Shown one piece after another: positions 1-40,266 of a stretch of 40,266 bases of DNA. The stretch comes from a virus (lineage: Duplodnaviria > Caudoviricetes), in IMG/VR virus record IMGVR_UViG_3300048898_000030, positions 1-40,266 of that record, one strand, 5' to 3'. The position numbers were made by a program, and so were the translations under genes. The notes beneath the pieces were generated by a model, which made no database searches, had not been told where the DNA came from, and saw only the letters and a list, made by a program, of their open reading frames with translations. Every line of letters begins with the position of its first letter. Positions within the stretch are counted from its first letter, which is position 1.

Positions 1-157
1 CCGAGCTGGCCTCGGCCGTGGCGTTCCTAAAAATCCCAGGAGGAGGAGCTTGCGCTACTCTTGGCATAATGCCCTGGCTTCCCGTCTCTTTTGTTTATAA
101 CGGAGATCTCGTTCGCGGTACTCGGCTTTATGTGCGATATAATAAGCGCGCACTGTT
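1..157. repeat. Terminal direct repeat, left copy (circular overlap)
   Basis: 1-157 matches 40110-40266 except T127 vs C40236, a synonymous AAA/AAG change in the HNH ORF. Confidence 0.95.
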
Positions 158-570
158 GCAGGGTTCCGTCGGTAGCGTGCCTCCTGTTTAATACGAGTGC
201 ATAAGCGACAAGCTCGCCGGCCACCTATTGTAATATAAGTGTTGTCATGTGAGTATTCGTGCCCTTGCGGACAGTGGGTCTTTTTGGATTGCCCATTGCG
301 CCCCTTGGCAGACATATCCCGATTGTTATCGGCATTCGTGCCAAGGAATAAGTGCTCCGGGTTGCAGCACAACCTTACATCGCACCGATGACATATAGAT
401 AATCCGGCTGGAATGGGACCATTAACCTCTTCCCAGGCCAACCGATGCACGGACTTACCACGAAGCCTGCCATACCCAGATCTGACATAACCCTCCCATA
501 GCCAACACCCAGACCAGGGCACGGGAATTGTGTGATCTCTCCAATGTTCGATGCGCTTACGTTCTGGCAT
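55..570 (-). CDS. Free-standing HNH homing endonuclease
   Basis: SGCWLWEG...GYG...HRLAW...ICHRCDVRLCCNPEHLFLGTNADNNRD; followed by a KTHCPQGHEY...CRLC Zn motif; lower GC. Confidence 0.9.
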   Translation of the reverse strand: MPERKRIEHWRDHTIPVPWSGCWLWEGYVRSGYGRLRGKSVHRLAWEEVNGPIPAGLSICHRCDVRLCCNPEHLFLGTNADNNRDMSAKGRNGQSKKTHCPQGHEYSHDNTYITIGGRRACRLCTRIKQEARYRRNPATVRAYYIAHKAEYRERDLRYKQKRREARALCQE

Positions 571-2769: not shown

Positions 2770-5103
2770 CTACGCTCCGTCCACGCGGGTCCACTCGACC
2801 GTCGCCACCACGCGCCAGATCACCGCGTTGCCGGTGGGCGGCGTGAAGGTCAGGGAATAGCCGCCGTTGGTGGTGTCGGCGGCTTCTGTTACCGCTATGC
2901 CAGCAATCGTGCCGACGCCGCCCGACACAGGCGTGCCGAGGGGGGTGTATGTCGTCGTGCTTGCCGCACCGCTTCTTTTGAGCAGCCCGAGCGTCTGGCA
3001 CCAGGAATAGCTGTTGGCAGAGTTTGTGCTGTCGGTTGCCGACAGCAACACGGTCAGCGCCGAGCACTGATGCTGCGAAGTCGATGGCATATTAACAACA
3101 TTGATCGCGGAGGCTGCCAGCCCGTCGGCGGTTAGCCTCACCGGGGTCGTATTCGCCGCCGAAACACCCTTGAGTATCTGCTTGTTATTTTGCCCCCGGC
3201 GCCCGCTGGAAATGGTCCCGGCCGAATGGGCGACCAGTCCATATAAGTCGGCAACCGCATTCGTACCCATAGCGACACTGCAATATTGGCTCGCCGAGTT
3301 GCCAGCACCGCCGAGCACCGTCGATCCGATCCCTGAAGCGCTGTTGCCCGACCCGCCGATAATGGTGGCGTCCTGCGCTACCGATGTGATGGTGTTATTC
3401 TCGCCACCACTAATAGTGCTTTGCTGGCCAGCAGCCACCTGCGTCGCGGCAGTGCGCAGGAGTTGAAGATCGACGCTCAGGTTGCCGCGCGAATTGCCGC
3501 CCGCGATCGTGGCGTCAGGATATTGCGCGACAAGTGGCTGCACGCCGCCCGTCCAGGTCAGCACCGACTGATTATCGGCCTGGACAAAAGCCGTAGCCCC
3601 CACGCCTAGCGTGGGCAGGACTCCCGCATTCTGACGGTCGAGGAACAGCACGCGGCATCCGATCGCCGCGCTGGTAAAACCACCCGTATTCGTCCCGGCG
3701 TATAGCCCGGCGTCACCGGTATGGTTGAATATATGCCACCTGGCACCGCCGTTGTTCGCATCCAGCGTGCCATTGCAAATCAGCAACCGGCCAGCCCCCG
3801 CCCCGATCTTCTGGCCGATCAGACTGTCGTGGAAGTTGTGGTCGGAGTTGTTGCAGACCACGCCGTGGCCGTTGTTGTAGAGCAGGTCGATGTCATCGAA
3901 CCAGTTAAGGCTGGTGTTGCCGAAATGAGTGCCGCCACTGCCACCCACGACGCCGGACCCGCCGATAAACACCAGCGGCGCTGTCGCAAATGCTGCCCCC
4001 AGCAGGGCAACGCCGGCGAACCGCACGCGAAGGAACTGCGTATCGTTGCTGTCCTGCAGACTGTCCACCACGTCGAAGCGGATGCCCTCGCCGCCGATGG
4101 TCACCGTCTCGGTGGCGCTGGCTATAGCCTGCATCGAAGCATTGAAGTGCGTTGCATCGGTGATAGATGCGACATAGGCACCGCCGGGTAGATTGGTGCT
4201 AACCACGCTCTCACCGAGGCGCAGGCCGGCCGTGGACGATACCGTGACGGTTGTCGATCCGGCTGTCAGCGTCGCGCCGGTATAGGGGATACCGGCTGGC
4301 TCGTACGTGGAGCACTCGATGCGCGCGCGTCGCGTGCTGGCGATCAGCGGCCCGGCGGCCCCCGCAATGCCGCCGCAGTAGAACAGGATGCCACGGACGT
4401 TGGTGCCGGACAGCAGCCGCAGGCCGTCGATCGGCGCGACAGTCAGCATGTTGACCTGGAACTGCCCGGCGGTGCGCGCAGCGCCGGTCCAGGTCAGCCG
4501 CGTTGGCGCCGATGGCGTGGAGCGGGCAACATTGGAGTTCACCAGGAACTCGGCGCCCGCGCTCTCCAGCGACACGTTCTGTTTGCTGATACTAAGCGGC
4601 TGATTAATCCGTCCGTTGCCGTTTGGCAGCATGACCGTGCCGCCATAACTGTAGTTGGTCACTCGCGACTGGCATAGATTGATCGCCGCCTGAACGGCCA
4701 CGCCGTCGATTTCGTCGGTCAGCGCTACGGCGTGCGGATACACCGCCTGCGCGGCGGCGAGGGTAGGATAATACGCCGAGAGCGGGTGCGAGTTGCCGTC
4801 GAACACCGCACCGAAGTCACGGACGTTCACCACGTCGGCGAAGCGGTTGGCAATCGTGCGTGAGGCCATGCTGCCGGTAGCTATGGCGGTTGACGTGCTA
4901 AGTGGCGCGGTCACCGGCCCCGCCACGGTGCCGCCGGTGGCCAGCGGCAGGAAAGGGCCGCCGGACAGCCCATCGCCATGCTGCTTCAGCGTGGCATCAA
5001 GCGTATCAGCATTGATGTTCCAATGATTGCCCCACTGATCGCCATCAGCGTTCACGGTCGGCTTATAGAGGCTGTAATTGGGCGTCAGCGTATAGTCGCT
5101 CAT
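2770..5103 (-). CDS. Tail spike/fibre, probable beta-helix receptor-binding protein
   Basis: Start re-assigned to ATG 5103 (MSDYTLTPNY); VNVRDFGA.FDG...AVQAAIN motif typical of pectate-lyase-like spikes; S.ISGG.NN repeats near the C-terminus. Confidence 0.8.
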   Translation of the reverse strand: MSDYTLTPNYSLYKPTVNADGDQWGNHWNINADTLDATLKQHGDGLSGGPFLPLATGGTVAGPVTAPLSTSTAIATGSMASRTIANRFADVVNVRDFGAVFDGNSHPLSAYYPTLAAAQAVYPHAVALTDEIDGVAVQAAINLCQSRVTNYSYGGTVMLPNGNGRINQPLSISKQNVSLESAGAEFLVNSNVARSTPSAPTRLTWTGAARTAGQFQVNMLTVAPIDGLRLLSGTNVRGILFYCGGIAGAAGPLIASTRRARIECSTYEPAGIPYTGATLTAGSTTVTVSSTAGLRLGESVVSTNLPGGAYVASITDATHFNASMQAIASATETVTIGGEGIRFDVVDSLQDSNDTQFLRVRFAGVALLGAAFATAPLVFIGGSGVVGGSGGTHFGNTSLNWFDDIDLLYNNGHGVVCNNSDHNFHDSLIGQKIGAGAGRLLICNGTLDANNGGARWHIFNHTGDAGLYAGTNTGGFTSAAIGCRVLFLDRQNAGVLPTLGVGATAFVQADNQSVLTWTGGVQPLVAQYPDATIAGGNSRGNLSVDLQLLRTAATQVAAGQQSTISGGENNTITSVAQDATIIGGSGNSASGIGSTVLGGAGNSASQYCSVAMGTNAVADLYGLVAHSAGTISSGRRGQNNKQILKGVSAANTTPVRLTADGLAASAINVVNMPSTSQHQCSALTVLLSATDSTNSANSYSWCQTLGLLKRSGAASTTTYTPLGTPVSGGVGTIAGIAVTEAADTTNGGYSLTFTPPTGNAVIWRVVATVEWTRVDGA

Positions 5104-5324: not shown

Positions 5325-7039
5325 CAGGGTGCGACGCTCGGGGTGACGGTGCCGGCGCAGCGCATGTTGCCGGAGGCGTCTACCGACCATTTCGCGACGC
5401 CGGATACGGCAAAGACCAGCTTGCCGCTTGCGTTGTCGTAGGACAGCGTGCGCGTGCCTGCGGTGTCGAATGCGATGTGATGCCCATCGGCCAGCCAGAT
5501 CGCATGCCCACCAGCCTGTTGCACCGCGAACTCGGTGGAGAACGCCGCCTTGAGGAACGGCCCATACGCCGCATAGTTCCGGCGGAAGCTGGTGCCCGGC
5601 AAATCGGCGCTCGGCCCAACCCGCACGCCCCAGCCGATCACCGCATTAGTCCCACCGGCAACAGCCTTCGCGCCGACCACATCAACGACAACGCGCACGC
5701 CCTGATTGCCGGGAACGTCAGCGCTGCCCGCGCCGCCATCGTCGTCGTCGTTGGCGAGGACATCGAACTCGACACCGATCGAGGATATACCGGACAGGCT
5801 CGACTTCAGGCCGGTGTTGTCGGTGGCCGAGATGTTTCCGCCAAACGAAGCATGATTTCGCCCGGTCGGGCTGACGACGGAATACCCTGTGACCGCGACG
5901 AGGTTGCCGCCGGACGGCTTGGTGCTGGTGATGACTGCCGCGACGCCGAGCGTATCCTCCAGTGCCGATGACGTTGGCGTGGCGTTGATTCGCAGCGCCG
6001 TGACGGTGTTATGCGCCACGCCACCGGTATGGTTCACCGTGCTGTCGATGCGGACAACCGGAGCGAGAAACCCGGTCGCGGTATTGCTGCGGGCGAAATA
6101 CTTGGACCCGACAAAGCTCTCTACGATGTCGGTACCCATGCCCACGACAGGCGTGGTACCGGAACTACCGACATAGTTGCCGTCATAGCGCCACAGCACG
6201 GGCGTTGTCGGGCCGCCGGTCGGCGCCGTGTTGACGAACTGGCGCCCGCGCGGAACAACAATAGTGCCGTAGTCGGCAGCCGCAGCGCGTGCCGCCGCCC
6301 AGGCCGCCGTGTCGTTGGTGGTGCCGTTCAGTACGGCGCCGAAGTCCGTGACATTGATCCAGTCGTGCGCGCGGTCCTGCGCCGAGCGCGACGTTGTGCC
6401 GCCGGTTGCGGTGTAGTTGAGCGGCCCCAGCATCGTCCCGCCCGACAGCGGCAGGAAACCCGGCCCACCACCACTGCCGCTATGCGCGTCCACGTAGCCC
6501 TTGGTGGCAGCCTGCAGAGCGTCGGTGGGATCTCCGGCCAAATACACCGGCCCGGTCAGGGTACCGCCCGCAAGCGGCAGATACGCCCCGATACTGGCCG
6601 TGCCGCCTGAGCCTGTGGCCGCCTGAACGCCCAGCGTGCCAGCCGAGAACCGCACGATATCGCCGGCCGACACCGTGATGGTCAGCGGCGTGGTGAAGTC
6701 AGCCGGATCGACCAACTGGCCCCAGTACAGCCGGTTGCCGCCCGCCGCCGCGTCCCACAACTCAAAGAACCCGACCACGCCCCACGAGGACGTAGCCTGC
6801 TGGAACTCGATGGACGTGGTGTTGGCGGCGATGTTGGACGGCCCGGAGATCAGCGCGAAGGTGGCTGGTGTGCGGACATAGCCGCCGCCCGACGCCTCCA
6901 GCCCGCGCACCGTCTCGGACGGCGGTTGCGCGGCCAGGCACAGTGCCACATACACCTGCGTCGGCGAGGCCATCGGCGCGAAGCCCAGGCTGTGGCCGAG
7001 TAGGGCCTGCTCAAGACCGATGCTGGCGCTGCCGTCCAT
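5324..7039 (-). CDS. Tail fibre protein
   Basis: N-terminal EASGGGYVR...WG....LWDAAAGGNRL domain; LPLxGGTxxG repeats; AATKGYVD; INVTDFGA. Confidence 0.8.
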   Translation of the reverse strand: MDGSASIGLEQALLGHSLGFAPMASPTQVYVALCLAAQPPSETVRGLEASGGGYVRTPATFALISGPSNIAANTTSIEFQQATSSWGVVGFFELWDAAAGGNRLYWGQLVDPADFTTPLTITVSAGDIVRFSAGTLGVQAATGSGGTASIGAYLPLAGGTLTGPVYLAGDPTDALQAATKGYVDAHSGSGGGPGFLPLSGGTMLGPLNYTATGGTTSRSAQDRAHDWINVTDFGAVLNGTTNDTAAWAAARAAAADYGTIVVPRGRQFVNTAPTGGPTTPVLWRYDGNYVGSSGTTPVVGMGTDIVESFVGSKYFARSNTATGFLAPVVRIDSTVNHTGGVAHNTVTALRINATPTSSALEDTLGVAAVITSTKPSGGNLVAVTGYSVVSPTGRNHASFGGNISATDNTGLKSSLSGISSIGVEFDVLANDDDDGGAGSADVPGNQGVRVVVDVVGAKAVAGGTNAVIGWGVRVGPSADLPGTSFRRNYAAYGPFLKAAFSTEFAVQQAGGHAIWLADGHHIAFDTAGTRTLSYDNASGKLVFAVSGVAKWSVDASGNMRCAGTVTPSVAP

Positions 7040-7704
7040 CAGAACACCGTTGCCAACTCGCTACGATACGGCGCTCCGCTATAGTCGCTCTGCTGCTTGT
7101 GGAGGTCAGCAGCGGTGACTTCCTCCCGCCATTTCGCATCAGCTTGTTGCGCGCGGTCGTCGTCCAACTCGTACAGCGCGCCTTCCTTTATAACGCCCCA
7201 CAGATAGACGCCATACAACTGCTCAAGGATGACGTTGGTATCGGATGGCAGCAGCAGCGGCTTGGGGCGGGCGTAGTAGCCCATCATCGCCATCTGCGGT
7301 TTCCAGTTTGGGTCTGGCGGATCCGGAATGACGGGATGCGGCAACCACTCGATACAGTCATGCACCAGCCGGTACGCCGTGCATGGCTGGCCGAGGATGC
7401 TGCCCACCGCACCCTGCCACGCACTGGTCTGCGCGCCAGTCCAGTGTCCCGACCATTCGTCTAAGAGAACGAACAGCTCCCCGCTCGTCGCGTCGCGGAT
7501 GCTCTCCATGGTCGCGAAATCCGGCGGCAGCGAGATGTAGGCATTGTCGATCGGCTGGGTGACGGTCACCACCATGCAGCGTGCGCGCAGGTTCTGGGCG
7601 ATCTTGGTTTCGGTCATACGTACCCAGGTCGGCACGCGGTCCACGACATCGCGCCGGTTCAGGTAGCTTACGCAATCGTCCGAAAGCTGCTGCAGGCTGG
7701 CCAC
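7039..7704 (-). CDS. Head-tail adaptor (tail tubular A-like)
   Basis: LNR.D....P.W....E..I...LR, LP.DF, YYA....L..DTN..L..YLWG; position after the capsid gene. Confidence 0.75.
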   Translation of the reverse strand: MASLQQLSDDCVSYLNRRDVVDRVPTWVRMTETKIAQNLRARCMVVTVTQPIDNAYISLPPDFATMESIRDATSGELFVLLDEWSGHWTGAQTSAWQGAVGSILGQPCTAYRLVHDCIEWLPHPVIPDPPDPNWKPQMAMMGYYARPKPLLLPSDTNVILEQLYGVYLWGVIKEGALYELDDDRAQQADAKWREEVTAADLHKQQSDYSGAPYRSELATVF

Positions 7705-7707
7705 CGG

Positions 7708-8034
7708 TTAGTCCCGGCGAGGATGCGGCGTTGGCGTGGGTGTTGGCGTCGGGGTTTCGCCGGCCCCCAGCACCGGCTCCTGCTGCGAGGCAACCAGCGT
7801 CTGGCCGGCCTCGTAGGTGGCATTCCCGGCGGCGAGCGCGCAACTGCGCATGTCACCGGCCGAGGTGGCTTCGGGATAGAGGCGCACCAGCAGGATGGGA
7901 TCGATGTCCTCGATCAGCACCGGCTTTGCCGCCTCGACGGAGCCTGTCACGGGCGCCTTGCCCTGCATGCCGACACCGGGGGACGGACGCTGCCGAGGCG
8001 CGTCAGCGTGGTTCTCATGGGTTGCAAGGGCCAT
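7708..8034 (-). CDS. Hypothetical virion-module protein
   Basis: Translationally coupled ORF in the late operon. Confidence 0.6.
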   Translation of the reverse strand: MALATHENHADAPRQRPSPGVGMQGKAPVTGSVEAAKPVLIEDIDPILLVRLYPEATSAGDMRSCALAAGNATYEAGQTLVASQQEPVLGAGETPTPTPTPTPHPRRD

Positions 8035-8345
8035 CAGAGCGTACTCCTGTCATCGGTTCTGAACACGCAGTTGTCGGGGTCGTTGAGCCAGCGATTCAGC
8101 GCGGCCTCGTCCTTGGTGATCCCCAGGCGTTGCAGGTTCTGCCAGATCACCATCGGAATGCGCGCCACATGCACCGTGTCGCGCCGCACCAGCGGATCGA
8201 AGTTGGACGCAATCCGCTTGGCGCTCTCGACAATCGGCCGGGTGTTCTGCGAGTGGGTAAAGACCAACCCGGCATCGGTGTCGGTATCGACCTCGGTGGC
8301 GCGCAGCGTTACCGGGTCGTAGTTGGAATAAAGCAGATTACTCAT
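8034..8345 (-). CDS. Conserved-type phage protein downstream of capsid
   Basis: HVARIP.VI...WLNDPDN..FRT motif, often seen after podovirus capsid genes. Confidence 0.7.
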   Translation of the reverse strand: MSNLLYSNYDPVTLRATEVDTDTDAGLVFTHSQNTRPIVESAKRIASNFDPLVRRDTVHVARIPMVIWQNLQRLGITKDEAALNRWLNDPDNCVFRTDDRSTL

Positions 8346-8356
8346 TGCACATACCG

Positions 8357-8456
8357 TGCTATAAGCGGGGCACTGTCGGCTCGCGAAAGCCGGCAGGCCC
8401 CTAACCTCGATCCTGAAGGGAAGGACCGAAGGCTATGTCTCACATCGACGATATCA
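8357..8456 (+). promoter_or_regulatory. Structured leader, copy 2
   Basis: Extended -10 TGcTATAAG; stem 8367-8381/8388-8401; CTAACC 8401-8406; CGATCCT pairs with AGGACCG; ATG 8435. Confidence 0.65.
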
Positions 8457-9028
8457 AGATCGCCATCAAGCGCGCGGGTGATAACCAATGGCGTAACGAC
8501 AATCTGGAGGCAAAGCGAGCCTACCAACGCGCCTATTACGCCAAGAATAAAGAGAAGCTGAGGGAGAACAGCAAGCGTGCCTACGCCAATCTCCCACCCG
8601 AGATTAAAGCTGCACGGGTTGCTTATCAGGCGCAGTGGAGAAAAGACCACCCAGAGGCTCGGAAGAAGATCACTAAGCGCTACCGGGAAGGTAACAAGGA
8701 ATATCTCGCCCGAGCCGATCGCGAATACAACGCTAACCCTGAACGTCGGAAGATCCTTCGCGCGCGCCACGCCGCGACACTGGAAAGCCTTGCCGGCCGT
8801 CCTCGCCCCGAGATCTGCGACGCTTGCGGAGGACCGCCTGACGACAAGATCGGAATGCACTTCGATCATTGCCATAAGCGTGGGCACTTCCGGGGATGGA
8901 TATGCCGAGAGTGCAATCTGGCGCTTGGCAACATCCGAGACGACATCGGCAGACTCCGCAAGCTGATCGCCTACCTCAAACGCACCAAGGATGGTCCCGC
9001 TAGCCAATTCAGCCTCCCTGGGGTATAA
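8435..9028 (+). CDS. Endonuclease VII-family free-standing endonuclease, antisense to the late operon
   Basis: CDACGG...FDHCH.RGHFRGWICRECNLALG; paralogue of 1727-2242. Confidence 0.88.
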   Translation: MSHIDDIKIAIKRAGDNQWRNDNLEAKRAYQRAYYAKNKEKLRENSKRAYANLPPEIKAARVAYQAQWRKDHPEARKKITKRYREGNKEYLARADREYNANPERRKILRARHAATLESLAGRPRPEICDACGGPPDDKIGMHFDHCHKRGHFRGWICRECNLALGNIRDDIGRLRKLIAYLKRTKDGPASQFSLPGV

Positions 9029-9057: not shown

Positions 9058-10041
9058 CTATTGATTTAGATCGAAGATTGTGGCATGAGCCTTAGGTGCA
9101 GTCGGACGTATACATCCTTCGTAGACAACACCACCCTGGGTATTATCGCCGGTGGTGGCGTACGTTTGGTCGACAAAGGATCTGCCCGATAGTGGCGCCA
9201 TCTCGGCGTAGTCGGTGCTGACCAGGATGATCTGGTGCGCCGGCATAAAGCGGTCGGGGGCGAGTTGGATGGCACCGAAGTTGGTGCGATACACGTCCAC
9301 CGCGCCCTGAATCGTCACCTGCTCGCTCGACGTGACGTTCTGGATGTTCTGCGCCACCACGGCGTTGCCGGTCCCGCCCTGCGACAGCGTGGCAAAGTAG
9401 GCTTTGACGTTGCCCGACATGATGCCCAGTGTGGGCTTGCCGCCGGCCTGCCAGCATTGCTGCATCGCGCTATCGACCATCGCCAGCGTGAGATCGCGCA
9501 GAGTGCCGGCGGTGCCAGCATTGGAGCCGTCGCCGACCGGCATCACACCAGCGCCGGCACCGCGTGAGCCGTTGACCGTGTAGCATGGCAACCCGGACAT
9601 ATGGCGCGGGTCGGTGATGGTGCGCACCAGCGGCGAGGTGATCGCCAGTTCCAGGTCGCGCTTGACCTCCATGCCGCGCAAGATTAACTGCCGGTTGTAC
9701 TCGTCCTCGCCACCTGCCATGTCGGCCGCGCGCAGGGTGTTCGATACGCCGACTGTACGAGCCAAAATTTGACAAACATTATTTAATCTGACTGGCTTCA
9801 CAACGACTTGCATAACCGCAGTAAAGCCCTCGGGCTGCGCGTTATCAGCGGCTTGATTAAGCTCTTGTACTAGGAATTCTGTAAGTACTTGTTGGGCATC
9901 TACTGATGGTAGTGCCGAGTAAAGCGGCGTTTCGTCGGGATCTATTCTTTCGATAATGTCCCGCAAGTCCTCCTTTACACCAATCGCTGCAGTCTCGATA
10001 TAAGTCCCCGCCGGGGCGGCACCTTGGGCTCCTACAGCCAT
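9058..10041 (-). CDS. Major capsid protein (DUF5309/SU10-like)
   Basis: KEDL.DII.RIDPDETP, NVCQI, EVKRDLE, VDVY.TNFG motifs; follows the scaffold gene; start set at ATG 10041 by SD spacing. Confidence 0.9.
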   Translation of the reverse strand: MAVGAQGAAPAGTYIETAAIGVKEDLRDIIERIDPDETPLYSALPSVDAQQVLTEFLVQELNQAADNAQPEGFTAVMQVVVKPVRLNNVCQILARTVGVSNTLRAADMAGGEDEYNRQLILRGMEVKRDLELAITSPLVRTITDPRHMSGLPCYTVNGSRGAGAGVMPVGDGSNAGTAGTLRDLTLAMVDSAMQQCWQAGGKPTLGIMSGNVKAYFATLSQGGTGNAVVAQNIQNVTSSEQVTIQGAVDVYRTNFGAIQLAPDRFMPAHQIILVSTDYAEMAPLSGRSFVDQTYATTGDNTQGGVVYEGCIRPTAPKAHATIFDLNQ

Positions 10042-10236
10042 AGTCATCTCCATTGACGCAGGAGACGCACTTTTGGCGTCTGCTGCTGTTGAAACCGGAT
10101 TGTGGGTTTCGCAATGGAATGACCGGGCTAGTCTGGGTTGGTGCAAGCACTCCCAGAGGACCGCAGATCAGTCTTTAGCGACGGCACTTCCCGTCCAGCC
10201 GGTTGGTGGCCTAAGCCACTCCTTCGGACGACAGGT
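10042..10236 (-). ncRNA. Candidate structured cis-regulatory leader of the capsid mRNA
   Basis: Several hairpins; two GGAGTG-loop-CACCAACC motifs; GTCATTCCATTG pairs with CAATGGAGATGAC across the SD. Confidence 0.55.
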
Positions 10237-10942
10237 TGCTAGTATGTGACAGCAAGCGACGCGTCGTCAATACGGTTTGCCATTCCTCCATTGTCATGGC
10301 GTGCTTAGAAAGATTACAGGAAGGGCAGAGGATCTGGATATTGTCCGGCCAGCTGGTGCCACCACGACTAACTGGCACGATATGATCGCAATGAAACCCG
10401 CCCGATACGTCAGCACGGCAATGCGTGGCGGCACATTGGTAGTTCTGTCCAGCCAAGAGCATCAGGACATCATCCGCGGTAAATCGGCCAACAGCACTCC
10501 GACGAACTGCCTTCGAGGCCCTGTCAAACGCCGATTGCCGCTCGGGGTTATCCTTGGCCCATTGCTTTGAGGTCACCCTTACGCGGGTCTTGTGTGCCGG
10601 ATCGTACTTATACTTCTCGTGGTATCGCTTCCCAGTCCAGAGTCGCTTTCGCTCCTTCTCCTGCTCCGCTCTTGGCTTAGCCCAACGATCGTAGATGGCC
10701 TTACGCCGATCGGGGTTGTCCTTATTCCACTGGATGGACTGTGCGTTGAAGCGCTCCTTGTGAATACGGCTGCGCGCCAAGTTCTGTGCCCGCACGCAAT
10801 CGTAGCACGCTCCAGTCGTAACCCAACGTTCGGCTATATGACCATGTTTGCAGGAAGTGCCTGTGAAATATCGCTTTAAACCGAGAGCTTCCGCCTCATC
10901 CTTGGATACAAGCGTACGCTTAGGTAGTATGGGGTCAGCCAT
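10211..10942 (-). CDS. Free-standing HNH endonuclease
   Basis: N-terminal RYFTG..CKHGHIAER...C.DC; C-terminal DHIVPVSRGG....NIQILCPSCNLSK. Confidence 0.9.
   Translation of the reverse strand: MADPILPKRTLVSKDEAEALGLKRYFTGTSCKHGHIAERWVTTGACYDCVRAQNLARSRIHKERFNAQSIQWNKDNPDRRKAIYDRWAKPRAEQEKERKRLWTGKRYHEKYKYDPAHKTRVRVTSKQWAKDNPERQSAFDRASKAVRRSAVGRFTADDVLMLLAGQNYQCAATHCRADVSGGFHCDHIVPVSRGGTSWPDNIQILCPSCNLSKHAMTMEEWQTVLTTRRLLSHTSNLSSEGVA
10241..10270 (-). promoter_or_regulatory. Putative capsid promoter inside the HNH 3' end
   Basis: TTGACG-N18-CATACT on the minus strand. Confidence 0.45.
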
Positions 10943-11030
10943 ATGCCCTCTCACACCAGGGTCTATTGGTCAGGAGACGGCGGCGCGTTCAGGGCGCTGC
11001 CGTTCTCCGATTCATCTCGGCATACTACCA
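10902..11030 (-). promoter_or_regulatory. Structured leader, copy 3, with an opposing antisense promoter
   Basis: Minus strand GGAGAACGGCAGCG...CGCCGCCGTCTCC-TGACC-hairpin-ATG 10942; plus strand TTGGAT(10902)-N17-TAGTAT(10925) points across the start codon. Confidence 0.65.
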
Positions 11031-12082
11031 TTCGCACGTCGCGCTGCCAACAAAGCCGCTGCGTTCCTGACGTTGGCCTTGGCATCGAACGCCTGTTCGG
11101 CGACCTGAACGCGCTCGGTGGGTGCCGGCGGAGGCGGTGCGCCACGCACGGGCGCCTGTAGCCGTTGGGCCGGTGCTGCGGTCTTGGCGCCTTCCACCCA
11201 GCGATCGAACATCGCCGCTTTCATCATCGTGCGTAAATGGTGAGCGCTGGTCAGGCCGCGCAACTCGTCCTGCGTGAAGCCGCCCTTGGTGGTGGCCCAT
11301 TCCACAATCTGCCGCTGCGCCTGCGCCCGCTCGGTCGGGTCGCTCCAGAAAGGGAACTCCTTGGCCAGTTGCTCATTGGCCGCTGCCACCTGCTGCGCCA
11401 TGGCTCTCTCGTGGGCCTGCTGCTGCAAGGCGGTGAGGTTGCCAAGGCGCCCCTGTTCCTCGCGCGACGCCTCGTATTGTGCGAGTTCGCGCAGATACCG
11501 CTGCGGGTCGGTTTCCAGCAGCGCCGCATCAGGCCGCGCCACGCCCTGCACCGTCTGGGCAAGTCGCTGCAGCTCCGGCTGGATATACGGCAGCACGGTA
11601 GCCAGGGCTTCCTGCTGTGCGGCGAGGGAGCGCCGTTGCTGGGCGATCTCCTGGGTCTTGGCGGTATAGTCCGCCGACTTCAGCACCGCTTCGCGCAGTT
11701 GGGCGGTGGTGTAGCGCTGACCCTCGATCTCGACGGCGGCCGCCATGTCGCTGGTCGTCTGTTCGAGCGGCGCCGTCCCTGGCGGCACGGCCACACCAGG
11801 CACGCCCAGGGCGCGCTCCATGGCACTGAGGCCGGTCTCGGCCTTGGGTGCCGCGTCAGGTGCCTTGGGTGCCTCAGCAGGCTTCTGAGCGCCCGCAATG
11901 GCGTCGTTGGGCGCTGGGCGGCGCTCGGGTGCTGTGGACTCTGGTGCGCCCTGTTGGCGGCGCTGCTGACTGAGTAGCCGGGCAGCCTCGGAGACTGAGA
12001 TGGCGGGCTGCGATGCCGGCGGCGGGGAGCTTTCGCCGCCACCCTCAGCCGGTGCGGCGGGTGCGGATGTGGTTTCGGACAT
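11012..12082 (-). CDS. Capsid scaffolding protein
   Basis: Between portal and capsid; low-complexity N-terminus; EIEG...T..QL......DYTAKTQEIA coiled coil. Confidence 0.8.
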   Translation of the reverse strand: MSETTSAPAAPAEGGGESSPPPASQPAISVSEAARLLSQQRRQQGAPESTAPERRPAPNDAIAGAQKPAEAPKAPDAAPKAETGLSAMERALGVPGVAVPPGTAPLEQTTSDMAAAVEIEGQRYTTAQLREAVLKSADYTAKTQEIAQQRRSLAAQQEALATVLPYIQPELQRLAQTVQGVARPDAALLETDPQRYLRELAQYEASREEQGRLGNLTALQQQAHERAMAQQVAAANEQLAKEFPFWSDPTERAQAQRQIVEWATTKGGFTQDELRGLTSAHHLRTMMKAAMFDRWVEGAKTAAPAQRLQAPVRGAPPPPAPTERVQVAEQAFDAKANVRNAAALLAARRANGSMPR

Positions 12083-13228: not shown

Positions 13229-15935
13229 TGGCGCCCCCTCCCGGCATAGGAAGCGGCGGTCCGCCCGGTCCCATCAGCGGCGACATGGCCGCACGCTGCG
13301 TTAGCAATCCATACGCACCCGGTGGCCCACGCCCGCCGATCAGCGCGCTCTTGATCGCCGCCTGCGTGGCGGGGTCCATCCCACCACCGGGCGGCGGTGA
13401 CGGGCGTGGCTGCGGTGGTGGCGCCATTCCACCGCCCGGCGGCGGCATCATCGGCTGCGGCGGCCTGGGCGGCCCCTGCGGCTGTGGTGGCGACGCTCCC
13501 ACGGCCGGCGGCTGCGGCGACATCGGGCTGGGCGTGCTGGACAGCAGCCCAACGGCCGGCACCTTGCTCTGCATCGCCTGCTTGAACTCGTCATAGCTCG
13601 GCGCTGGCGTGCCAAACTGGGCGGCAGCCACCCAGGTCTTGGACCACGCATCGAGCGCCGCCTTGTCGCGCTCGCGGTCGTCCTCCATGAGCAGCCGCGC
13701 GCGATCGGTCTGTTGCTTCGCGCGGTCGCCTTCAATGTCCGCCGCTGTCTTGGATTGCTGCACCTGCGCCAACAGCATGTCCGTGTTGGGCTGCTGCGGC
13801 GCCGGCGGCGGCTTGAACCCCGGTGGCAGCGCCTTGAAGTACGACGACACGTCGCTGATGCTCACCGTCTCCAGCATGCGCGCGAGCGTATTGCGATACT
13901 CGGGAATGCCGGACAACGGGTTGTCCATCCCGCCCACCTGCATGATCTGCTCCTGCTTCTGAGCAATCGCCTGCAGCATCGCCAGTCGCTCATGCGGCAT
14001 GCCCTTGCCGCCGACGTTGATGGAGGTCTCCCACATCGTGGCCAGCGCCCGCGGATCGATGGAAATCCACTCGCCCCGGATACGCACGACGTTCGGCCGG
14101 TCCTGCTGGCGCGCCATCATGCGCAGAATGCCGGCATAGAGCGGTGCCAGACCGGTCTCAGCCAGGGTGCGCGCTACCATGTCGAGGCGGTCCTGCGCGG
14201 CGCTGCTCTGCTGGCTCACCGCCACCGGCGAGGTGGACTGCAACTCGTCCACCGTGAGGCCCGCTGAGGCACGGGTGATGCCGGTGCGGCTTTCCCTGAT
14301 GGCCTCGAGCACGTCCATGACCGGCAGCGCCTCTTTGCCGGCGAACGGCTTGACCAGTTCCGCCACCGCGCCCTGCTGGGCAACCCGGATGATGCTGCCG
14401 ATCGCCGTCTGGCGTACGTCTGCTAGGTTCGCCTGCCCGATCACCACCGCCGTGCGCGGGAACATCGCCTGCCCGAGGCTATCGAGCACCGCACGCATAA
14501 CGCGGGATTCCACCCGCTGCAGGTCCATGACCATATCGGCCTGGCTGCTGCCGATAATCCGTCCCGGCTCCCGATAGGGCGTGAAGCACGCCAGCGGGAT
14601 CTCGTCGCAGCGCTCCCACTGCACCAGCGTCGAGGCATCACCCAGCATATGCACATGGATCAGCTCGGCGCGGTTGTCGCCGTCGGTGTCGCACCTGATC
14701 CAACCCTCGGCATAGCGCACGATACCCATGGATCTGTCGTTGGGTGGCGCACCCTTGATGTTGTAGCCCTGCGCATAGTCCCGCGCGATGATCTCCTGCC
14801 GCTGCCGGGTTCGCATCATCGAATCGCGGTGCGCCAGCACCTTGTCCTCGGGCAGCCCCATCTCGATCAGATCGCTGGCCGCGACATCCCGCACATGGAA
14901 CACCGCACGCGCGCCCTCGACGGTGGCGGCGTCAGCGACTACCCAGACGCATTCCGCCGCCACCGCCTCGATCACCGGCCACGATTGTTGGGCGCTGCGG
15001 GTGATAGTCGCCGACCAGTATTCCGCCGGGGCGCCCTGGCTCAGATACATCTGCCCGTCCGGCGTCTTGGCCAGCGCCTCCTGCTCGCGCTGCAGCATTG
15101 GCCGGCGCACGATGCGCTGCGCCTCAATGCCAGGTTCGGCAAGCAGCATCTGCAACTGCGGAAGTAGCAGCCCCTCGCACACCTCGGTGCGGATTTGCTG
15201 TCGCTTGCCCCAATACCAGCGCACCCAACCGGCCTTGCGGGTCAGCGCATCGAGCAGCGCGTCATGCAGCACCGTCCACCCCTTATTCGCGGTGAACAGC
15301 GCCCAACGGCAATAGTCCGTCGCCTGCCGCGCCAGCGTTGTGGCAAGCTGGTCGTTGCCGGTGATCTCACTGCTGATCGGCTCGAACGACACCGGATCTT
15401 CCACCGCCGTGAACAGCCGCAGCAGGCTTGGCAGCGTCTGGCGGATGGTGTCCCTGACGACCGTGAGCACAATCTGGCTGCGCCCCGTAGCCTCGTCACC
15501 GAATGGCCGGCCCGCATAGTATTGGCTTGCGGTAATACGCTCGCGGCTTAGGTATTGGTCGTAGTTCTGCGCGATCTTGAAGTAATACCGCGCGACGGAA
15601 GTGATCTCCTCGTCCGTCTTGCCGAGACGTTCAAAGATGATCTCCTGTTGCCAGGATGCACCGTCTGGCTTGGCGGCGGGCCGCAACCCTGCCGCATACT
15701 TGCGAAGCTGTGCCGGCAGTTGGTCGTCAGTGTCTGTCTCCGCCTCGGTGTCCTTGGGCGGCAGCAGATAGGCCAGCACCTGCTCGGCGCCGAGCTGCAT
15801 GCCGGCGGGACGCATGCCCTGCGGCACCAGTCCGGGGATCTGCGGCATCGGCGGTGGTCCGAACGACTGCGCCGACTGGCCAAGCAGACTGCCGGGCGGC
15901 ATTGGCGGCGGTGGTGCTGGCAGCATGCCGCTCAT
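13218..15935 (-). CDS. Portal protein
   Basis: Follows terL; YYAG.PFGDE..GRSQIV...VRDTI....PSLLRLF and ESRTGITR motifs; Pro-rich termini; start set at ATG 15935. Confidence 0.88.
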   Translation of the reverse strand: MSGMLPAPPPPMPPGSLLGQSAQSFGPPPMPQIPGLVPQGMRPAGMQLGAEQVLAYLLPPKDTEAETDTDDQLPAQLRKYAAGLRPAAKPDGASWQQEIIFERLGKTDEEITSVARYYFKIAQNYDQYLSRERITASQYYAGRPFGDEATGRSQIVLTVVRDTIRQTLPSLLRLFTAVEDPVSFEPISSEITGNDQLATTLARQATDYCRWALFTANKGWTVLHDALLDALTRKAGWVRWYWGKRQQIRTEVCEGLLLPQLQMLLAEPGIEAQRIVRRPMLQREQEALAKTPDGQMYLSQGAPAEYWSATITRSAQQSWPVIEAVAAECVWVVADAATVEGARAVFHVRDVAASDLIEMGLPEDKVLAHRDSMMRTRQRQEIIARDYAQGYNIKGAPPNDRSMGIVRYAEGWIRCDTDGDNRAELIHVHMLGDASTLVQWERCDEIPLACFTPYREPGRIIGSSQADMVMDLQRVESRVMRAVLDSLGQAMFPRTAVVIGQANLADVRQTAIGSIIRVAQQGAVAELVKPFAGKEALPVMDVLEAIRESRTGITRASAGLTVDELQSTSPVAVSQQSSAAQDRLDMVARTLAETGLAPLYAGILRMMARQQDRPNVVRIRGEWISIDPRALATMWETSINVGGKGMPHERLAMLQAIAQKQEQIMQVGGMDNPLSGIPEYRNTLARMLETVSISDVSSYFKALPPGFKPPPAPQQPNTDMLLAQVQQSKTAADIEGDRAKQQTDRARLLMEDDRERDKAALDAWSKTWVAAAQFGTPAPSYDEFKQAMQSKVPAVGLLSSTPSPMSPQPPAVGASPPQPQGPPRPPQPMMPPPGGGMAPPPQPRPSPPPGGGMDPATQAAIKSALIGGRGPPGAYGLLTQRAAMSPLMGPGGPPLPMPGGGANAG

Positions 15936-16498
15936 GTTTCCCAATCCCCGAAACATACCTCGCGAACGTATCGCGCCGTCAGGCTCGCGCGCGGATCGCG
16001 GCGATCGCCTCCCGTTATCTGCTGCCATGTCTTGCCGTAGATGACAGCGCTAATCGCACCGATGCTGACGCCAAACCTGTCTGCCAACTGCTGAAGGGTT
16101 GCCGTGCTATCCCAAATCTCGCGCACCGCAGCTTCCGTCAATACGGCAACAGGGCTTTCCTCTCCTCGCTTTGACGGTGAGGTCATGCGACCCCGGTTGT
16201 AACCATCGAGGTTGTTGTCCCGGTATGTGCCCCAATACAGATGGTCAGGGTTCACGCACGACGTCACGTCGCAATGGTGGCACGCCAGCATGCCGGGGCT
16301 CGGCTGCGGCCGACCATGCAACTGCAACGACACATGCGACGCCGTTATATTGCGACCCTCTCGGCCGCCACTACCTATCAGGCCATAGCCGTCTGGCTGG
16401 CATGCGCCATCCCACAACCAGCAGCCACTATTCGGCTCCGGCGACACGAACTTCCAGAACCGCTGCTCCAGAGGAATGCGATGGTATACCCGAGGCAT
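15932..16498 (-). CDS. Free-standing HNH homing endonuclease
   Basis: PEPNSGCWLWDG...GYG...CHHCDVTSCVNPDHLYWGT..DN; C-terminal HTH; TAATG-coupled to terL. Confidence 0.9.
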   Translation of the reverse strand: MPRVYHRIPLEQRFWKFVSPEPNSGCWLWDGACQPDGYGLIGSGGREGRNITASHVSLQLHGRPQPSPGMLACHHCDVTSCVNPDHLYWGTYRDNNLDGYNRGRMTSPSKRGEESPVAVLTEAAVREIWDSTATLQQLADRFGVSIGAISAVIYGKTWQQITGGDRRDPRASLTARYVREVCFGDWET

Positions 16499-17949
16499 TA
16501 AATCTCCATTCCCTTTAAATCCATAGTCATTCCGCGACTATCAAATAACCCGGAACTCATTCCGCTTGCAATTCCTAATCCCGCCTCAGCGAACGTCAGG
16601 CATAGTGCATCTGCGAAGTCGGTACTTGGTAGGCCGCGTGCCCGCATCAGTTGCTTGGACTCCACTTGCAACCGGCCATCACTGAGGAACGCATAACGCG
16701 GCGACGCCAGATCCTCTCGCAGCCTGTCATGCCGTGGCAACCGCACATTGCGGCCTGATAACCATTCTCGTGCGCGCACCCAGAGTTCGTCTCTCAATCG
16801 CGCATAGCGTCCCGTCGTGCTGGGCACCTCGGCCACATTAAGTCCAAGGACAGGCACATTCTGCTCGTGCAAACGATCCACGACCCCGGCACCGATGCCG
16901 ATCACATCCACCACGATCAGTGCTGGCTTGTTGGCTCCAGCGGCATCCCACTCAGCCTTAATAGCTCCGGCCAGCATCATGGTGTCGAACTGATGCCATG
17001 AGCGGGGCATCTCCTCGACTACCAGCCCACGCCGCTTGACCAATGTGCTGGCATCATTCCCGAACCTTGCAACATCACAACCCCAAATAGAGCTTGCGCT
17101 CATGTCGATTGGAATATCGCGTACCATAGCGCTGTCGATCAGGTCGGCGGGGATCAGCGTGTTGTCGTCCGCCGTGGGCCATTCACCCAAGCACCTTATG
17201 CGAAACGCATTGCTGTCACGCCCGTAACGCTCTGCAATCTCCTCGATGAACTTCGGATCAACGCGCGGGCTATCGAGCCCGCTCACCTTCATGCAATGCC
17301 ATCGGTCACGCTCCATGGTCATCACACGCCAAAAATACCCGGTTGCCCTGGTCGGATTACCTATCAGGACGGTTATCGCCCCCGGCGTGCTCATGCTGCC
17401 GCTGGCAGCCTCGTAAACATTCTCCTCGATGCCAGATGCCTCATCACAAACCAGCAACACGTTGGCGCTGTGGACGCCTTGCAACGCCTCCGGCTGATCA
17501 CGCCGACTGGTCCGGGCGCTGATAAAACACTCTGCATCAGCCTTTAAGCGTATGTGGTCCGCCTGCAAGTCCCATAGCTGGCGCCAGCCTGGAGGCAGTG
17601 ATGAAAACCATTTCGTCGTCTCACTCCAGAGACTATCATACAGCTGCGGGGCGCTCGGCGCAGTGCAGACGCACTTGAACGGCGAGCGGGTGTTGCAAAA
17701 CCAAACCATCAGCCAAGCTGCGAGCGCTGTCTTGCCACAACCGTGCGCGCTCCGGATGGCAATGCGCGTGTGGCCACGTGATATTGCCCGCAATGCCTCC
17801 AACTGCCAGGGATCAGGCTCGCAGTGTAAGACTTCGCGAACAAACGCCACGGGCGCTCGGGCGTATCTACCGATCGCTACATCGAACGGGTTGGCCGCCC
17901 TGGCAATGGCCTCGGCCCAGTCCGGCGGCAGGGTTTCAGCGTGGCTCAC
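16498..17949 (-). CDS. terL: Terminase large subunit
   Basis: Walker A SAHGCGKT, Walker B LLVCDEASG, IGNP motif, nuclease motifs GCDVARFGND and STDFADAL. Confidence 0.95.
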   Translation of the reverse strand: MSHAETLPPDWAEAIARAANPFDVAIGRYARAPVAFVREVLHCEPDPWQLEALRAISRGHTRIAIRSAHGCGKTALAAWLMVWFCNTRSPFKCVCTAPSAPQLYDSLWSETTKWFSSLPPGWRQLWDLQADHIRLKADAECFISARTSRRDQPEALQGVHSANVLLVCDEASGIEENVYEAASGSMSTPGAITVLIGNPTRATGYFWRVMTMERDRWHCMKVSGLDSPRVDPKFIEEIAERYGRDSNAFRIRCLGEWPTADDNTLIPADLIDSAMVRDIPIDMSASSIWGCDVARFGNDASTLVKRRGLVVEEMPRSWHQFDTMMLAGAIKAEWDAAGANKPALIVVDVIGIGAGVVDRLHEQNVPVLGLNVAEVPSTTGRYARLRDELWVRAREWLSGRNVRLPRHDRLREDLASPRYAFLSDGRLQVESKQLMRARGLPSTDFADALCLTFAEAGLGIASGMSSGLFDSRGMTMDLKGMEI

Positions 17950-38408: not shown

Positions 38409-38626
38409 CGCGGCACCATCTCGGTCACTACAGTGCCGGCGTCATCCACCGACAGCCTCCAGACGGTGCCATTCGGCGACTGGAAGCCTACGAACGGAAA
38501 CGCCGTCGATGTGCCGCCCGCATCCAGCTTACGGTTCAGGGCATCAGCGATTGCTGCCAGCCGCTGTTCGAGGTTGCCGCTGACTGGCGCAGTGAACGGT
38601 GCCGGCGGATGGTAGGGGCGGGCCAT
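38405..38626 (-). CDS. Small tail protein
   Basis: SPNGTVWRLSVDDAG motif; coupled to the nozzle gene. Confidence 0.65.
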   Translation of the reverse strand: MARPYHPPAPFTAPVSGNLEQRLAAIADALNRKLDAGGTSTAFPFVGFQSPNGTVWRLSVDDAGTVVTEMVPR

Positions 38627-40176
38627 CAGCGCCGGCCGCCTGCTCTCATTTCTAGTCTGAGACGCCCGAGCGCAAAGGGACCATCGACTAAAGCTTCGAT
38701 ACGCATACGGGTGGACCTTCCAGACCACCGCACGTCCATTAAACCCCCATGAACCGCCTGGTAAAGTCCGGTATCAAATTCGGAGGCCGCATCGTTCGGT
38801 TGCTCTCGCGGAAAGAACCTGACACCAATCATGTCATCGACGCTCGTGGTGGCATCCATTACGACCTGTTTACAATGGACGCGACGATCTCCCTCCGAAA
38901 TTAAGATATTCCCGCTCTCTGCATAAACTTCGCCGTTTGGTGCGCGCGGCACGCCATTCGAATCCCAGCCAAATTCATGGAGGTATAAGCAGCCACCACC
39001 TGTCGCAGCACCGCCGCCCAAAATCGGATTGTCCATCGTCCCGCTTGGATCAGCGGCCGTTCTCGCCCGAACTCCTATGGTCCAGGGGTGTGCTGGGTCA
39101 GCGAAATTGAACGCTACGTAGCGATTGCACTCTAAGCTGTCCTCATCCGGCCAATCGATCCAAATCTCAGAAAAAGCCGGGTTCGGACTAGCGAACACAC
39201 GACCGGCCATCGTGCGGTTGACTAGGCTGAAAAACCAATCCTGTACGGTACAAGGCAACGGCTGCACTGAGCCTTGATATGTCCAAAAAGTTTGCGTGCC
39301 GGGCCACATGATAAAGGAGCCAACCCCAACGACGGCTCGTGGGGAAATAGGCCCACATCCAGACGCAATTTGGACGATACCGTAGGCATACGGTGCTCCT
39401 ACGTACGTCATTTTATGCAAGTCATTCGCAGTGTAGATCAGCACGCCGTCAGACACCTTGATCGCGGTCATCGTGTAGCTCTGCGTCTGCAGCAGCTTAC
39501 TGCCCGCGAGATTGGTGACATCGGGCAGCCAAACGTCGGGGTTCTCCTGGTCGCTCCATGCGATGTTGCGCGGATCGCCCCCGGCTGCGAGCAGCACAAC
39601 GTGGCGCTGATCCGTCACCACCACGCCACGGCAGTTTATGGGTGCCGCCGTCACCAGCGCCGGCAGCGTGGCGGGCGTCTGCGGCGACCAGCGGTAGAGG
39701 TGCCCATCCTGCGTCGGCACGATCAGCAGATCCTCGCCGAACGTATCCATCGCCCAGCGGTCGCCCATAGTGGCGGCGATGTCCTGCGTGCCGATATCGG
39801 CGGCGTCGCGCGCAGTGCCGTAGGCGTCGGCGCTGTAGTCACCCATGCCGTAGCCGACCAGCGCACCGGGCGGATCGAGCGGCCCGACGCCGGACGGAGT
39901 GATGTCGTAGAGCGTCTGCAGGTCGAAGCGGTAGGCGTACAGCTTGCTATCGGTTCCGAACGCGGCCCAGCGCACGCGGTCATTATCGTGCCAAGTCAGC
40001 AAATCGCGCGGCAGATCGGCAACGGTGGTGCCGGGCTGTGCGATATTGCCGCCGATCGGCTGCAACTGCCCGCCGCGGAAGCGCACGTTATTGGCGTCGT
40101 ACCAATGTCCCGAGCTGGCCTCGGCCGTGGCGTTCCTAAAAATCCCAGGAGGAGGAGCTTGCGCTACTCTTGGCAT
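38626..40176 (-). CDS. Tail nozzle / head-stabilisation protein
   Basis: PPGIFRN.T...W.D.NNVRF, W..DTFGE.L, IAWSDQEN...W, EIW..WP; beta-propeller-like. Confidence 0.8.
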   Translation of the reverse strand: MPRVAQAPPPGIFRNATAEASSGHWYDANNVRFRGGQLQPIGGNIAQPGTTVADLPRDLLTWHDNDRVRWAAFGTDSKLYAYRFDLQTLYDITPSGVGPLDPPGALVGYGMGDYSADAYGTARDAADIGTQDIAATMGDRWAMDTFGEDLLIVPTQDGHLYRWSPQTPATLPALVTAAPINCRGVVVTDQRHVVLLAAGGDPRNIAWSDQENPDVWLPDVTNLAGSKLLQTQSYTMTAIKVSDGVLIYTANDLHKMTYVGAPYAYGIVQIASGCGPISPRAVVGVGSFIMWPGTQTFWTYQGSVQPLPCTVQDWFFSLVNRTMAGRVFASPNPAFSEIWIDWPDEDSLECNRYVAFNFADPAHPWTIGVRARTAADPSGTMDNPILGGGAATGGGCLYLHEFGWDSNGVPRAPNGEVYAESGNILISEGDRRVHCKQVVMDATTSVDDMIGVRFFPREQPNDAASEFDTGLYQAVHGGLMDVRWSGRSTRMRIEALVDGPFALGRLRLEMRAGGRR

Positions 40177-40266
40177 AATGCCCTGGCTTCCCGTCTCTTT
40201 TGTTTATAACGGAGATCTCGTTCGCGGTACTCGGCCTTATGTGCGATATAATAAGCGCGCACTGTT
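40110..40266. repeat. Terminal direct repeat, right copy
   Basis: Matches 1-157 with one mismatch. Confidence 0.95.

Follow-up and report, generated by a model that had tools for sequence, protein, structure and literature searches.

Synonymous Recoding at Both Ends of a Phage Capsid Gene and Its Probable Link to Intronless Homing by Neighboring Endonuclease Genes

The major capsid protein gene in the phage DNA analyzed here (a stretch of 40,266 nucleotides, hereafter the window) has been rewritten at synonymous positions at both of its ends, each of which faces a free-standing endonuclease gene. Among relatives, this recoding is stronger where a nuclease gene adjoins. The long 5' tract, judging by its codons and residues, was born within the lineage of the window. 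The synonymous rewriting likely reflects repeated cutting and patching by the adjoining nucleases, and we consider it reasonably probable that the turnover of the capsid ends is driven by intronless homing of successive free-standing nucleases.

Results

The capsid gene and its recoded tracts

The window is a 40.3-kb phage genome on one contig (G000) with SU10-type portal, capsid and adaptor genes (Table 1). Its cultured relatives are distant, with a capsid identity of at most 38% among 185 matching records, and near-identical sequence is present in soil and root metagenome runs. A structure prediction is of low confidence (mean pLDDT 49.6).

The first-pass annotation had counted by hand 13 of 40 codons ending in G or C at positions 9960-9841 versus 37 of 40 at 9420-9301, and both counts are exact. 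Its impression that the last approximately 45 codons are again rich in A/T-ending codons is borne out by a GC3 of 20/44 over codons 284-327, while the 5' patch it described is present but was drawn too short, the tract comprising codons 2-95. With Met and Trp codons set aside, GC3 amounts to 38/93 in the 5' tract (10038-9757), 151/178 in the core and 20/44 in the 3' tract (9192-9061). Both tracts deviate from the core (Fisher p 2e-13 and 2e-7, respectively, for boundaries picked after viewing the data), and when synonymous codons were shuffled within the gene, with correction for scanning, a 40-codon stretch with 13 or fewer G/C-ending codons occurred in 0 of 5000 runs. The capsid gene of locus L001 is identical to that of the window, and in four of four sequencing runs, one of which may be the window's own source sample, contigs cover parts of one or both patches with 0-1 differences; an assembly artefact is therefore ruled out.

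Table 1. Positions of the features discussed, numbered along the window.
Feature	Position	Strand	Basis or remark
103-aa gene	8034..8345	-	nuclease-facing 5' end not recoded (0-9%); control
Free-standing Endonuclease VII-motif gene (DHHRN-like), 197 aa	8435..9028	+	PF02945, E 4e-16
Major capsid protein gene, SU10/DUF5309 type, 327 aa	9058..10041	-	PF17236, E 4e-65; phrog_1328
3' recoded tract, codons 284-327	9061..9192	-	GC3 20/44; hypervariable zone across the family
Group I intron position of L109, L110 and L321, in Tyr294	9161..9162	-	inside the 3' patch
Core, codons 96-283	9193..9756	-	GC3 151/178; internal control
Small cluster of synonymous changes, codons 117-123	9673..9693	-	partly common to L004, L081, L082 and L092
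5' recoded tract, codons 2-95	9757..10038	-	comparison with ten close relatives
Group I intron position of L127, codon 54/55	9879..9880	-	inside the 5' patch
Structured 5' leader, two similar hairpins, conserved	10042..10235	-	alignment of loci
Promoter-like site inside the 3' end of the HNH gene	10239..10270	-	TTGAC in 11/11 aligned loci
Free-standing HNH endonuclease gene, 243 aa, upstream of the capsid gene	10211..10942	-	PF01844, E 4e-11; phrog_1035
Scaffold gene	11012..12082	-	nuclease-facing 3' end not recoded (8-16% synonymous difference, nearest scored blocks); control

Synonymous turnover relative to close relatives

For comparison, 155 related capsid loci were fetched, five of which were dropped for having fewer than 200 aligned codons. 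The 150 loci including the window were collapsed to 113 distinct ones, with 36 near-duplicates dropped; L154 (36% identity, low GC) was left out, as were loci whose contigs stop before the junction. The majority of the ten close relatives of the window (95-100% protein identity) served as reference. Relative to this majority, 70 of 93 codons of the 5' tract and 23 of 44 codons of the 3' tract are synonymously different, both with 0 amino-acid changes, and the core differs synonymously in 19 of 177 codons with one amino-acid change. The GC3 of the majority over codons 2-95 is 0.70, against the 38/93 of the window.

Codon identity of the 5' tract to the majority has dropped to the level of random choice (23 identical codons versus 27.2 by shuffle). 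It does not lie below the within-patch shuffle (p=0.13), as selection for non-identity would have it. Between the window and its protein-identical relatives this identity is 0.23-0.35, lower than the 0.36-0.59 that the same relatives share with lineages 13-19 residues away. The substitutions are of all types (18 C>T, 16 G>A, 6 A>G, 4 T>C and many transversions) and show no strand bias; most begin at C or G, and the protein is changed by none of them. The low GC3 is therefore a side effect: synonymous codons have turned over completely and left a consensus that ended in G/C. At 4-fold C/G sites, 4 of 15 are unchanged in the window versus 65.5% between distant lineages (p=0.0025; p=0.06 versus 50%), counts that suggest selection for difference. 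Pooled patches of four clades, with 44 stays versus 28 swaps, look like plain saturation and give no sign of such selection.

Several simple causes were rejected. Deaminase action or methyl-cytosine decay is contradicted by the balance of C>T and G>A, the many transversions and the A/T>G/C changes. A diversity-generating retroelement is at odds with changes that are not adenine-specific and bring no amino-acid diversification; scans of 33 proteins in Pfam and of 17 in PHROGs found no reverse transcriptase. A plain gene-end effect is too small at the ends of other genes.

When the whole genome is compared with G001-G004 in twenty-codon blocks, 233 blocks contain no more than one amino-acid change; 8 of these are recoded by at least 50%, and six of the eight are capsid ends. 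One block, at about 39366, is recoded though it lies 955 nt from any nuclease. The 3' half of a 516-aa structural gene (window about 38626-39400, minus strand) is low in GC3; it is far from G001, G002 and G004 and near G003. In G001, though not in the window, this gene is directly followed by a nuclease-like insertion (3265-3804).

Between close relatives, synonymous difference reaches 0.40-0.50 in the last 50 capsid codons versus 0.18 mid-gene, and is 0.07-0.27 at the ends of the portal, scaffold and three small genes, which have no nuclease slot. The 3' end of the adaptor gene is also high (0.41). The edges can be abrupt: L066 and L067 agree fully as far as codon 270 or so, differ synonymously by 70% from there to the stop and are near-identical again thereafter, so that in this pair, as in L121/L125, a divergent block of roughly 200 nt has near-identical sequence on both flanks. 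The adaptor 3' end (window 7039-7160) is a second hypervariable, low-GC3 gene end in relatives (L002, L003, L047, L028, L044), and an HNH gene stands directly downstream of the adaptor in 5 of 61 loci.

Origin of the 5' tract

Within codons 2-95, the clade has at 15 positions a residue unlike that of most of 41 near outgroup loci. All 15 of these clade-specific residues are retained in the window, 13 of them in recoded form. The 84 other pairs that differ synonymously by at least 70% over these codons each have no fewer than 12 amino-acid changes, and 894 other pairs with a codon identity of at most 0.40 have a minimum of 7 and a median of 31. No donor for the 5' patch was found, the best codon identity being 0.44 among the loci compared over those codons. 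With no amino-acid change and every clade residue retained, the tract thus arose within the lineage and did not come from a low-GC donor. The first-pass annotation had named such a donor, accompanied by an equal rise in amino-acid divergence, as what would speak against its reading; the change found here is synonymous only.

The window has micro-tracts in common with individual relatives, of 47 nt in the case of L083 and 26 nt in that of L081/L092, and 36 of the 70 derived codons of the 5' tract are found in at least one relative; such short shared runs imply that conversion within the clade shuffles micro-alleles. Synonymous versus amino-acid variants number 104:2 in codons 2-95 and 76:9 in the core (p=0.013).

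Free-standing nuclease genes and their slots

The window holds five free-standing nuclease genes, three HNH (55-570, 10211-10942 and 15932-16498) and two Endonuclease VII-type (1727-2242 and 8435-9028). The two beside the capsid gene had been recognized at first reading as an HNH gene upstream and an EndoVII gene downstream, which the profile matches confirm. The HNH gene stands between the scaffold and capsid genes; its Cys/DH/N/CxxCN motif looks intact in a motif scan. The Endonuclease VII gene lies between the capsid and 103-aa genes, convergent with the former on the opposite strand, and its motif, from residue 128 of 197, is C-terminal with D-H-x-H, R and N present. Both proteins are thus predicted to keep their catalytic motif, and the latter would belong to the DHHRN (F-CphI-like) type as defined in the available text of PMC6083498. 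For close homologues of the two, we found just the near-identical L001 record and distant matches. The HNH gene at 55-570 lies between a collar gene and the 516-aa gene, an arrangement that runs across the ends of the window (55-570, 40176-40266); in G002 the collar and 516-aa genes are direct neighbors, so the window must be a circular permutation. The terminase gene (16498-17949) is 69% identical to G001/G002, has low GC3 throughout and an HNH gene directly behind it, and is likely a replaced allele.

Both capsid-flanking nucleases are optional in relatives; in the window and in relatives, free-standing, patchily distributed nuclease genes thus stand between conserved genes, as in intronless homing. 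Of 85 loci, 34 have a nuclease at the junction between the capsid and the next gene; at six other junctions, 0-5 of 39-79 loci do (adaptor and junction counts are based on profiles alone). The downstream slot accommodates Endo VII and HNH types in both orientations; 41 loci have a nuclease there and 46 do not, and its presence changes at least 26 times on the 87-tip tree. Upstream nucleases are less common. Because the profiles miss some families (the G001 insertion is nuclease-like by eye, without a profile match), a short intergenic gap was demanded before a downstream nuclease was scored as absent. The scaffold-capsid slot can also hold other cargo (L022 335-1021, L023 1745-2398, L090 4167-4931, L031 3642-4067 on the minus strand, L121 3709-4449), namely antisense proline/glycine-rich repeat proteins with HPDQGLP units and one protein with a tail resembling the PEP-CTERM type.

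Association between nuclease genes and GC3

In relatives, the GC3 of each capsid end tracks the nuclease gene on its own side, the check that the first-pass annotation had proposed. At the 3' end (codons 281-327), the 41 loci with a downstream nuclease have a GC3 of 0.555 and the 46 loci lacking one a GC3 of 0.667 (p=1e-4), and neither the core (p=0.46) nor the far end (p=0.72) differs between these classes. In independent tree pairs, it is lower with the nuclease in 18 of 26 and the opposite in 8, with a mean of -0.09 (Wilcoxon p=0.019, sign test p=0.076); a binarised test on well-supported branches was not significant (median p=0.55). The phylogenetic signal of the link is therefore moderate.

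At the 5' end, for which 38 loci with other upstream inserts were excluded, GC3 over codons 2-45 is 0.55 with an upstream nuclease (n=6) versus 0.72 without (n=25; p=0.003). Across the four ranges, p is 0.002-0.003 for codons 2-30 and 2-45, 0.06 for codons 2-60 and 0.13 for codons 2-95. In the clade of the window, three genomes have an upstream nuclease. Each has a 5' tract that runs from the start codon, on the side facing the nuclease, to about codon 19 in L083, 43 in L063 and 95 in the window. Three members that lack an upstream nuclease differ from each other by 0.19-0.33 over codons 2-45. The last 40 adaptor codons behave alike, with a GC3 of 0.51 beside an adjacent HNH gene (n=5) versus 0.68 without (n=56; p=0.03).

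Recoded ends without nucleases and nuclease-facing ends without recoding

The association is not a simple one. Endonuclease-free relatives showing the same patches would have told against the first-pass reading, and they do so in part, since their ends are also low in GC3 (0.67 versus 0.83 in the core at the 3' side) and hyperdivergent: in close nuclease-free pairs, 46% of synonymous codons differ at the 3' end versus 16% in the core. Close pairs with none, one or two nucleases have 3' synonymous differences of 0.46, 0.51 and 0.48 (23, 37 and 30 pairs) versus 0.14-0.17 in the core. The nuclease-free recoded ends do not resemble nuclease-bearing ones more than cores do (8/16 ends versus 10/16 cores). 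L121, L122 and L125 carry nucleases that are 98-99% identical, yet differ synonymously by 0.42-0.48 at the 3' end; one enzyme thus does not fix one allele, and a fixed haplotype of nuclease plus immune allele is not supported. As regards co-conversion of flanking sequence with the nuclease gene, bounded tracts and shared micro-tracts are present, but no one fixed tract goes with the near-identical nucleases.

Within the window, the tracts are confined to the capsid side, and the scaffold and 103-aa genes at equal distance from the nucleases are unchanged. Gene ends facing the other three nucleases show no recoding in scorable blocks. Divergence is not clearly related to nuclease distance in this genome (Spearman p=0.066; near versus far gene ends p=0.41). 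As a general rule for this genome, the idea of recoded endonuclease-facing ends is not supported. The proposal that the patches mark target sites survives in part: they are synonymous and lineage-born, GC3 tracks the nucleases, and introns of relatives fall inside both patches. A single site is not what they mark, since 130-280 nt far exceeds a recognition site of 12-40 bp, and each patch therefore delimits a zone. According to the available text of PMC3159444, two LAGLIDADG enzymes cut targets altered at all wobble positions; such tolerance, if valid for HNH and EndoVII families, would weaken synonymous immunity.

Group I introns, leader and promoter-like site

Group I introns at both capsid positions listed in Table 1 are Rfam-confirmed, in four relatives in all, and an Rfam scan found none in the window. 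L109 combines its intron with an Endo VII remnant of 61 aa. In the distant phage C72C1 (L337, OQ984150.1), an unannotated group I intron at 1800-2040 (RF00028, 81.8 bits) splits the capsid gene, which is annotated as two pieces; the synonymous cluster at codons 117-123 of the window is near this intron site (about codon 114/115). In several introns (L109 1225-1529, L110 1393-1690, L321, L239, L314, L320), the 5' end extends the reading frame by a short tail closing in Ala-Ala-stop, which resembles the alphaproteobacterial ssrA tag. Such tails occur in 6 of 123 introns with one core motif, three of these at capsid Tyr294. A looser branch of the pattern also matched one downstream and seven opposite-strand controls, so that only the AND-type tails are persuasive. 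Literature searches turned up no natural case of an ssrA-like intron tail.

The leader of the capsid gene is identical at 135-138 of 189 nt to nuclease-free clade mates and at 158 of 189 to its closest counterpart, L083, which likewise has an upstream nuclease. Its hairpins (GGAGUG...CAC.AACC) show compensatory change among 12 loci in 18 of 33 predicted pairs and have no match in Rfam; the leader is possibly an operator for capsid autoregulation. The putative promoter-like site resembles the sigma-70 type.

Discussion

We propose that free-standing homing endonucleases cycle through the two slots and cut the capsid gene of co-infecting phages. Each nuclease would cut about 50-450 nt from its own gene, and repair would copy the uncut allele of the cutter. 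Spellings that escape a common nuclease would be over-transmitted while amino-acid changes are purged, and different nucleases with different sites would let patches accumulate into a long tract. Recoded ends in nuclease-free genomes could remain after short conversions or once the nuclease has been lost, and the drop in GC3 would follow from a usual spelling that is G/C-ending together with a turnover faster than codon preference. Such homing would account for the one-sidedness, the edges, the tract length and the moderate association.

The main rival, mutagenic repair, predicts much of the same pattern. Here, repeated nicks or breaks near nuclease genes, by self or non-self cutting, would undergo error-prone repair, and purifying selection would leave the synonymous changes without any need for a resistant allele. 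That all types of change occur without strand bias, that codon identity and the pooled stay/swap counts fit saturation, and that genomes with the same nuclease go on diverging is just what it leads one to expect; it has, moreover, been put forward to explain yeast mitochondrial exons that adjoin mobile introns (10.1101/092585, available text). The abrupt edges on the capsid side alone, with the scaffold and 103-aa genes spared at equal distance, are harder to reconcile with it, and the multi-codon micro-tracts shared with L083 and L081/L092 demonstrate conversion. Amino-acid variants, in addition, have not risen along with the synonymous ones (104:2 versus 76:9), which constraint could also explain. 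We regard mutagenic repair as unlikely; nuclease-independent forces and donor import fit worse than either homing or mutagenic repair.

Forces acting at the ends of conserved structural genes irrespective of nucleases, which would merely insert there, might come from translation or the structure of the RNA, from CRISPR and other host defences, or from recombination focused at a hot spot. All classes of relatives do show a certain drop in GC3 at either capsid end, and strong recoding occurs without a nuclease in L066, L113 and L026 and, for the adaptor, in L002, L003 and L047. A GC3 below 0.55 in the last 40 codons is nonetheless confined to 0-7% of loci for five neighbor genes, against 31% (capsid) and 21% (adaptor); a translational optimum predicts one common spelling where near-identical genomes differ instead, and the effect is limited to the nuclease-bearing side, all of which makes this reading quite improbable. 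Simple mosaicism, in which the capsid ends were brought in as one piece from a distant phage of lower GC, draws on the sharp tract edges, the divergent upstream leader and the mosaic nature of the genome elsewhere, as exemplified by its terminase. It would have to deliver 94 codons with no amino-acid change and all clade-specific residues in place, although comparable pairs with codon identity of at most 0.40 all have at least 7 changes and no compared locus exceeds a codon identity of 0.44 to the patch. This very improbable reading is already largely refuted.

Recombination hot spots erode their own motifs, and a homing enzyme might erode its own target in the same way, favoring spellings unlike the local consensus, with successive enzymes lengthening the tract until recoding is complete over a third of the gene. 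We offer only tentatively the idea of such a Red Queen race, which homing endonucleases would drive at the wobble positions of the phage gene under the strongest constraint. If it is true, GC3 dips at gene ends would provide a sequence-only map of present and past nuclease warfare, and recoding and intron insertion would be two alternative shields for the same sites.

If nuclease-driven recoding holds true, the synonymous sites of core phage genes cannot be treated as neutral where a homing endonuclease is near, and dS-based dating, codon-usage inference and capsid-DNA trees would be distorted. The natural allele pairs, which encode the same protein with up to three quarters of codons different, allow a direct test of how HNH and Endo VII-type enzymes tell self from non-self. 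They also bear on the question raised for yeast mitochondria, mutagenic repair versus co-conversion from an outside donor, as here an outside donor can be argued against.

Protein-invariant, synonymous-saturated phage capsid tracts beside free-standing nucleases were not found in literature titles and abstracts, with subscription papers mostly outside this coverage, and population-scale synonymous saturation of a phage capsid gene was not found in print. The closest genomic parallels are the HEG-islands of ICP1 and other phages (PMC10448857) and the polymorphism next to HNH genes of Skunavirus (PMC12724721), where nuclease genes are likewise enriched near the capsid gene and further essential genes and the lower identity of adjacent core genes is attributed to homing. 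The available text of these two reports mentions no protein-invariant recoded tracts or GC3 shift, and the word 'synonymous' is absent from PMC10448857.

The principle of intronless homing is already known from T4. As described in the available text of PMC2988022, PMC13565253 and PMC2790892, the enzyme cuts a conserved neighbor at a distance and spares its own genome by a sequence difference, the nuclease gene being inherited only where resection goes past it. Free-standing enzymes thus separate self from non-self by sequence differences in the neighboring conserved gene (PMC13565253), and in the case of MobE, the nick falls in the 5' region of nrdB, its neighbor (PMC2790892). The window resembles the demonstrated phage cases in its optional nuclease gene between conserved genes, in differences within the neighboring essential gene a few hundred bases off, and in a downstream promoter, putative here, embedded in the nuclease gene. 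Cleavage and inheritance were shown there for single phage pairs, whereas the evidence here is population-genomic; the near-complete synonymous saturation over 44-94 codons with unchanged protein, and the many nuclease types per slot, set the window apart.

Collaborative homing between F-CphI, an Endo VII-motif enzyme of the DHHRN family, and the psbA group I intron of cyanophage S-PM2 (PMC6083498, available text) offers a further model. As with F-CphI, a free-standing gene with a C-terminal Endo VII motif stands beside a conserved gene, and the capsid group I introns of relatives lie within about 100 nt of the nuclease slot. Unlike in that system, the window is without an intron, so that any protection would come from recoding, and the pairing of intron and Endo VII is seen only in relative L109. 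Yeast mitochondrial exons with heightened polymorphism beside mobile introns (Repar and Warnecke, 10.1101/092585, available text) are similar in that diversity rises toward the homing element, and mutagenic repair and co-conversion are the candidate causes there as here. The window differs from them in being a phage with free-standing enzymes and saturated divergence, and in having clade residues that argue against an outside donor.
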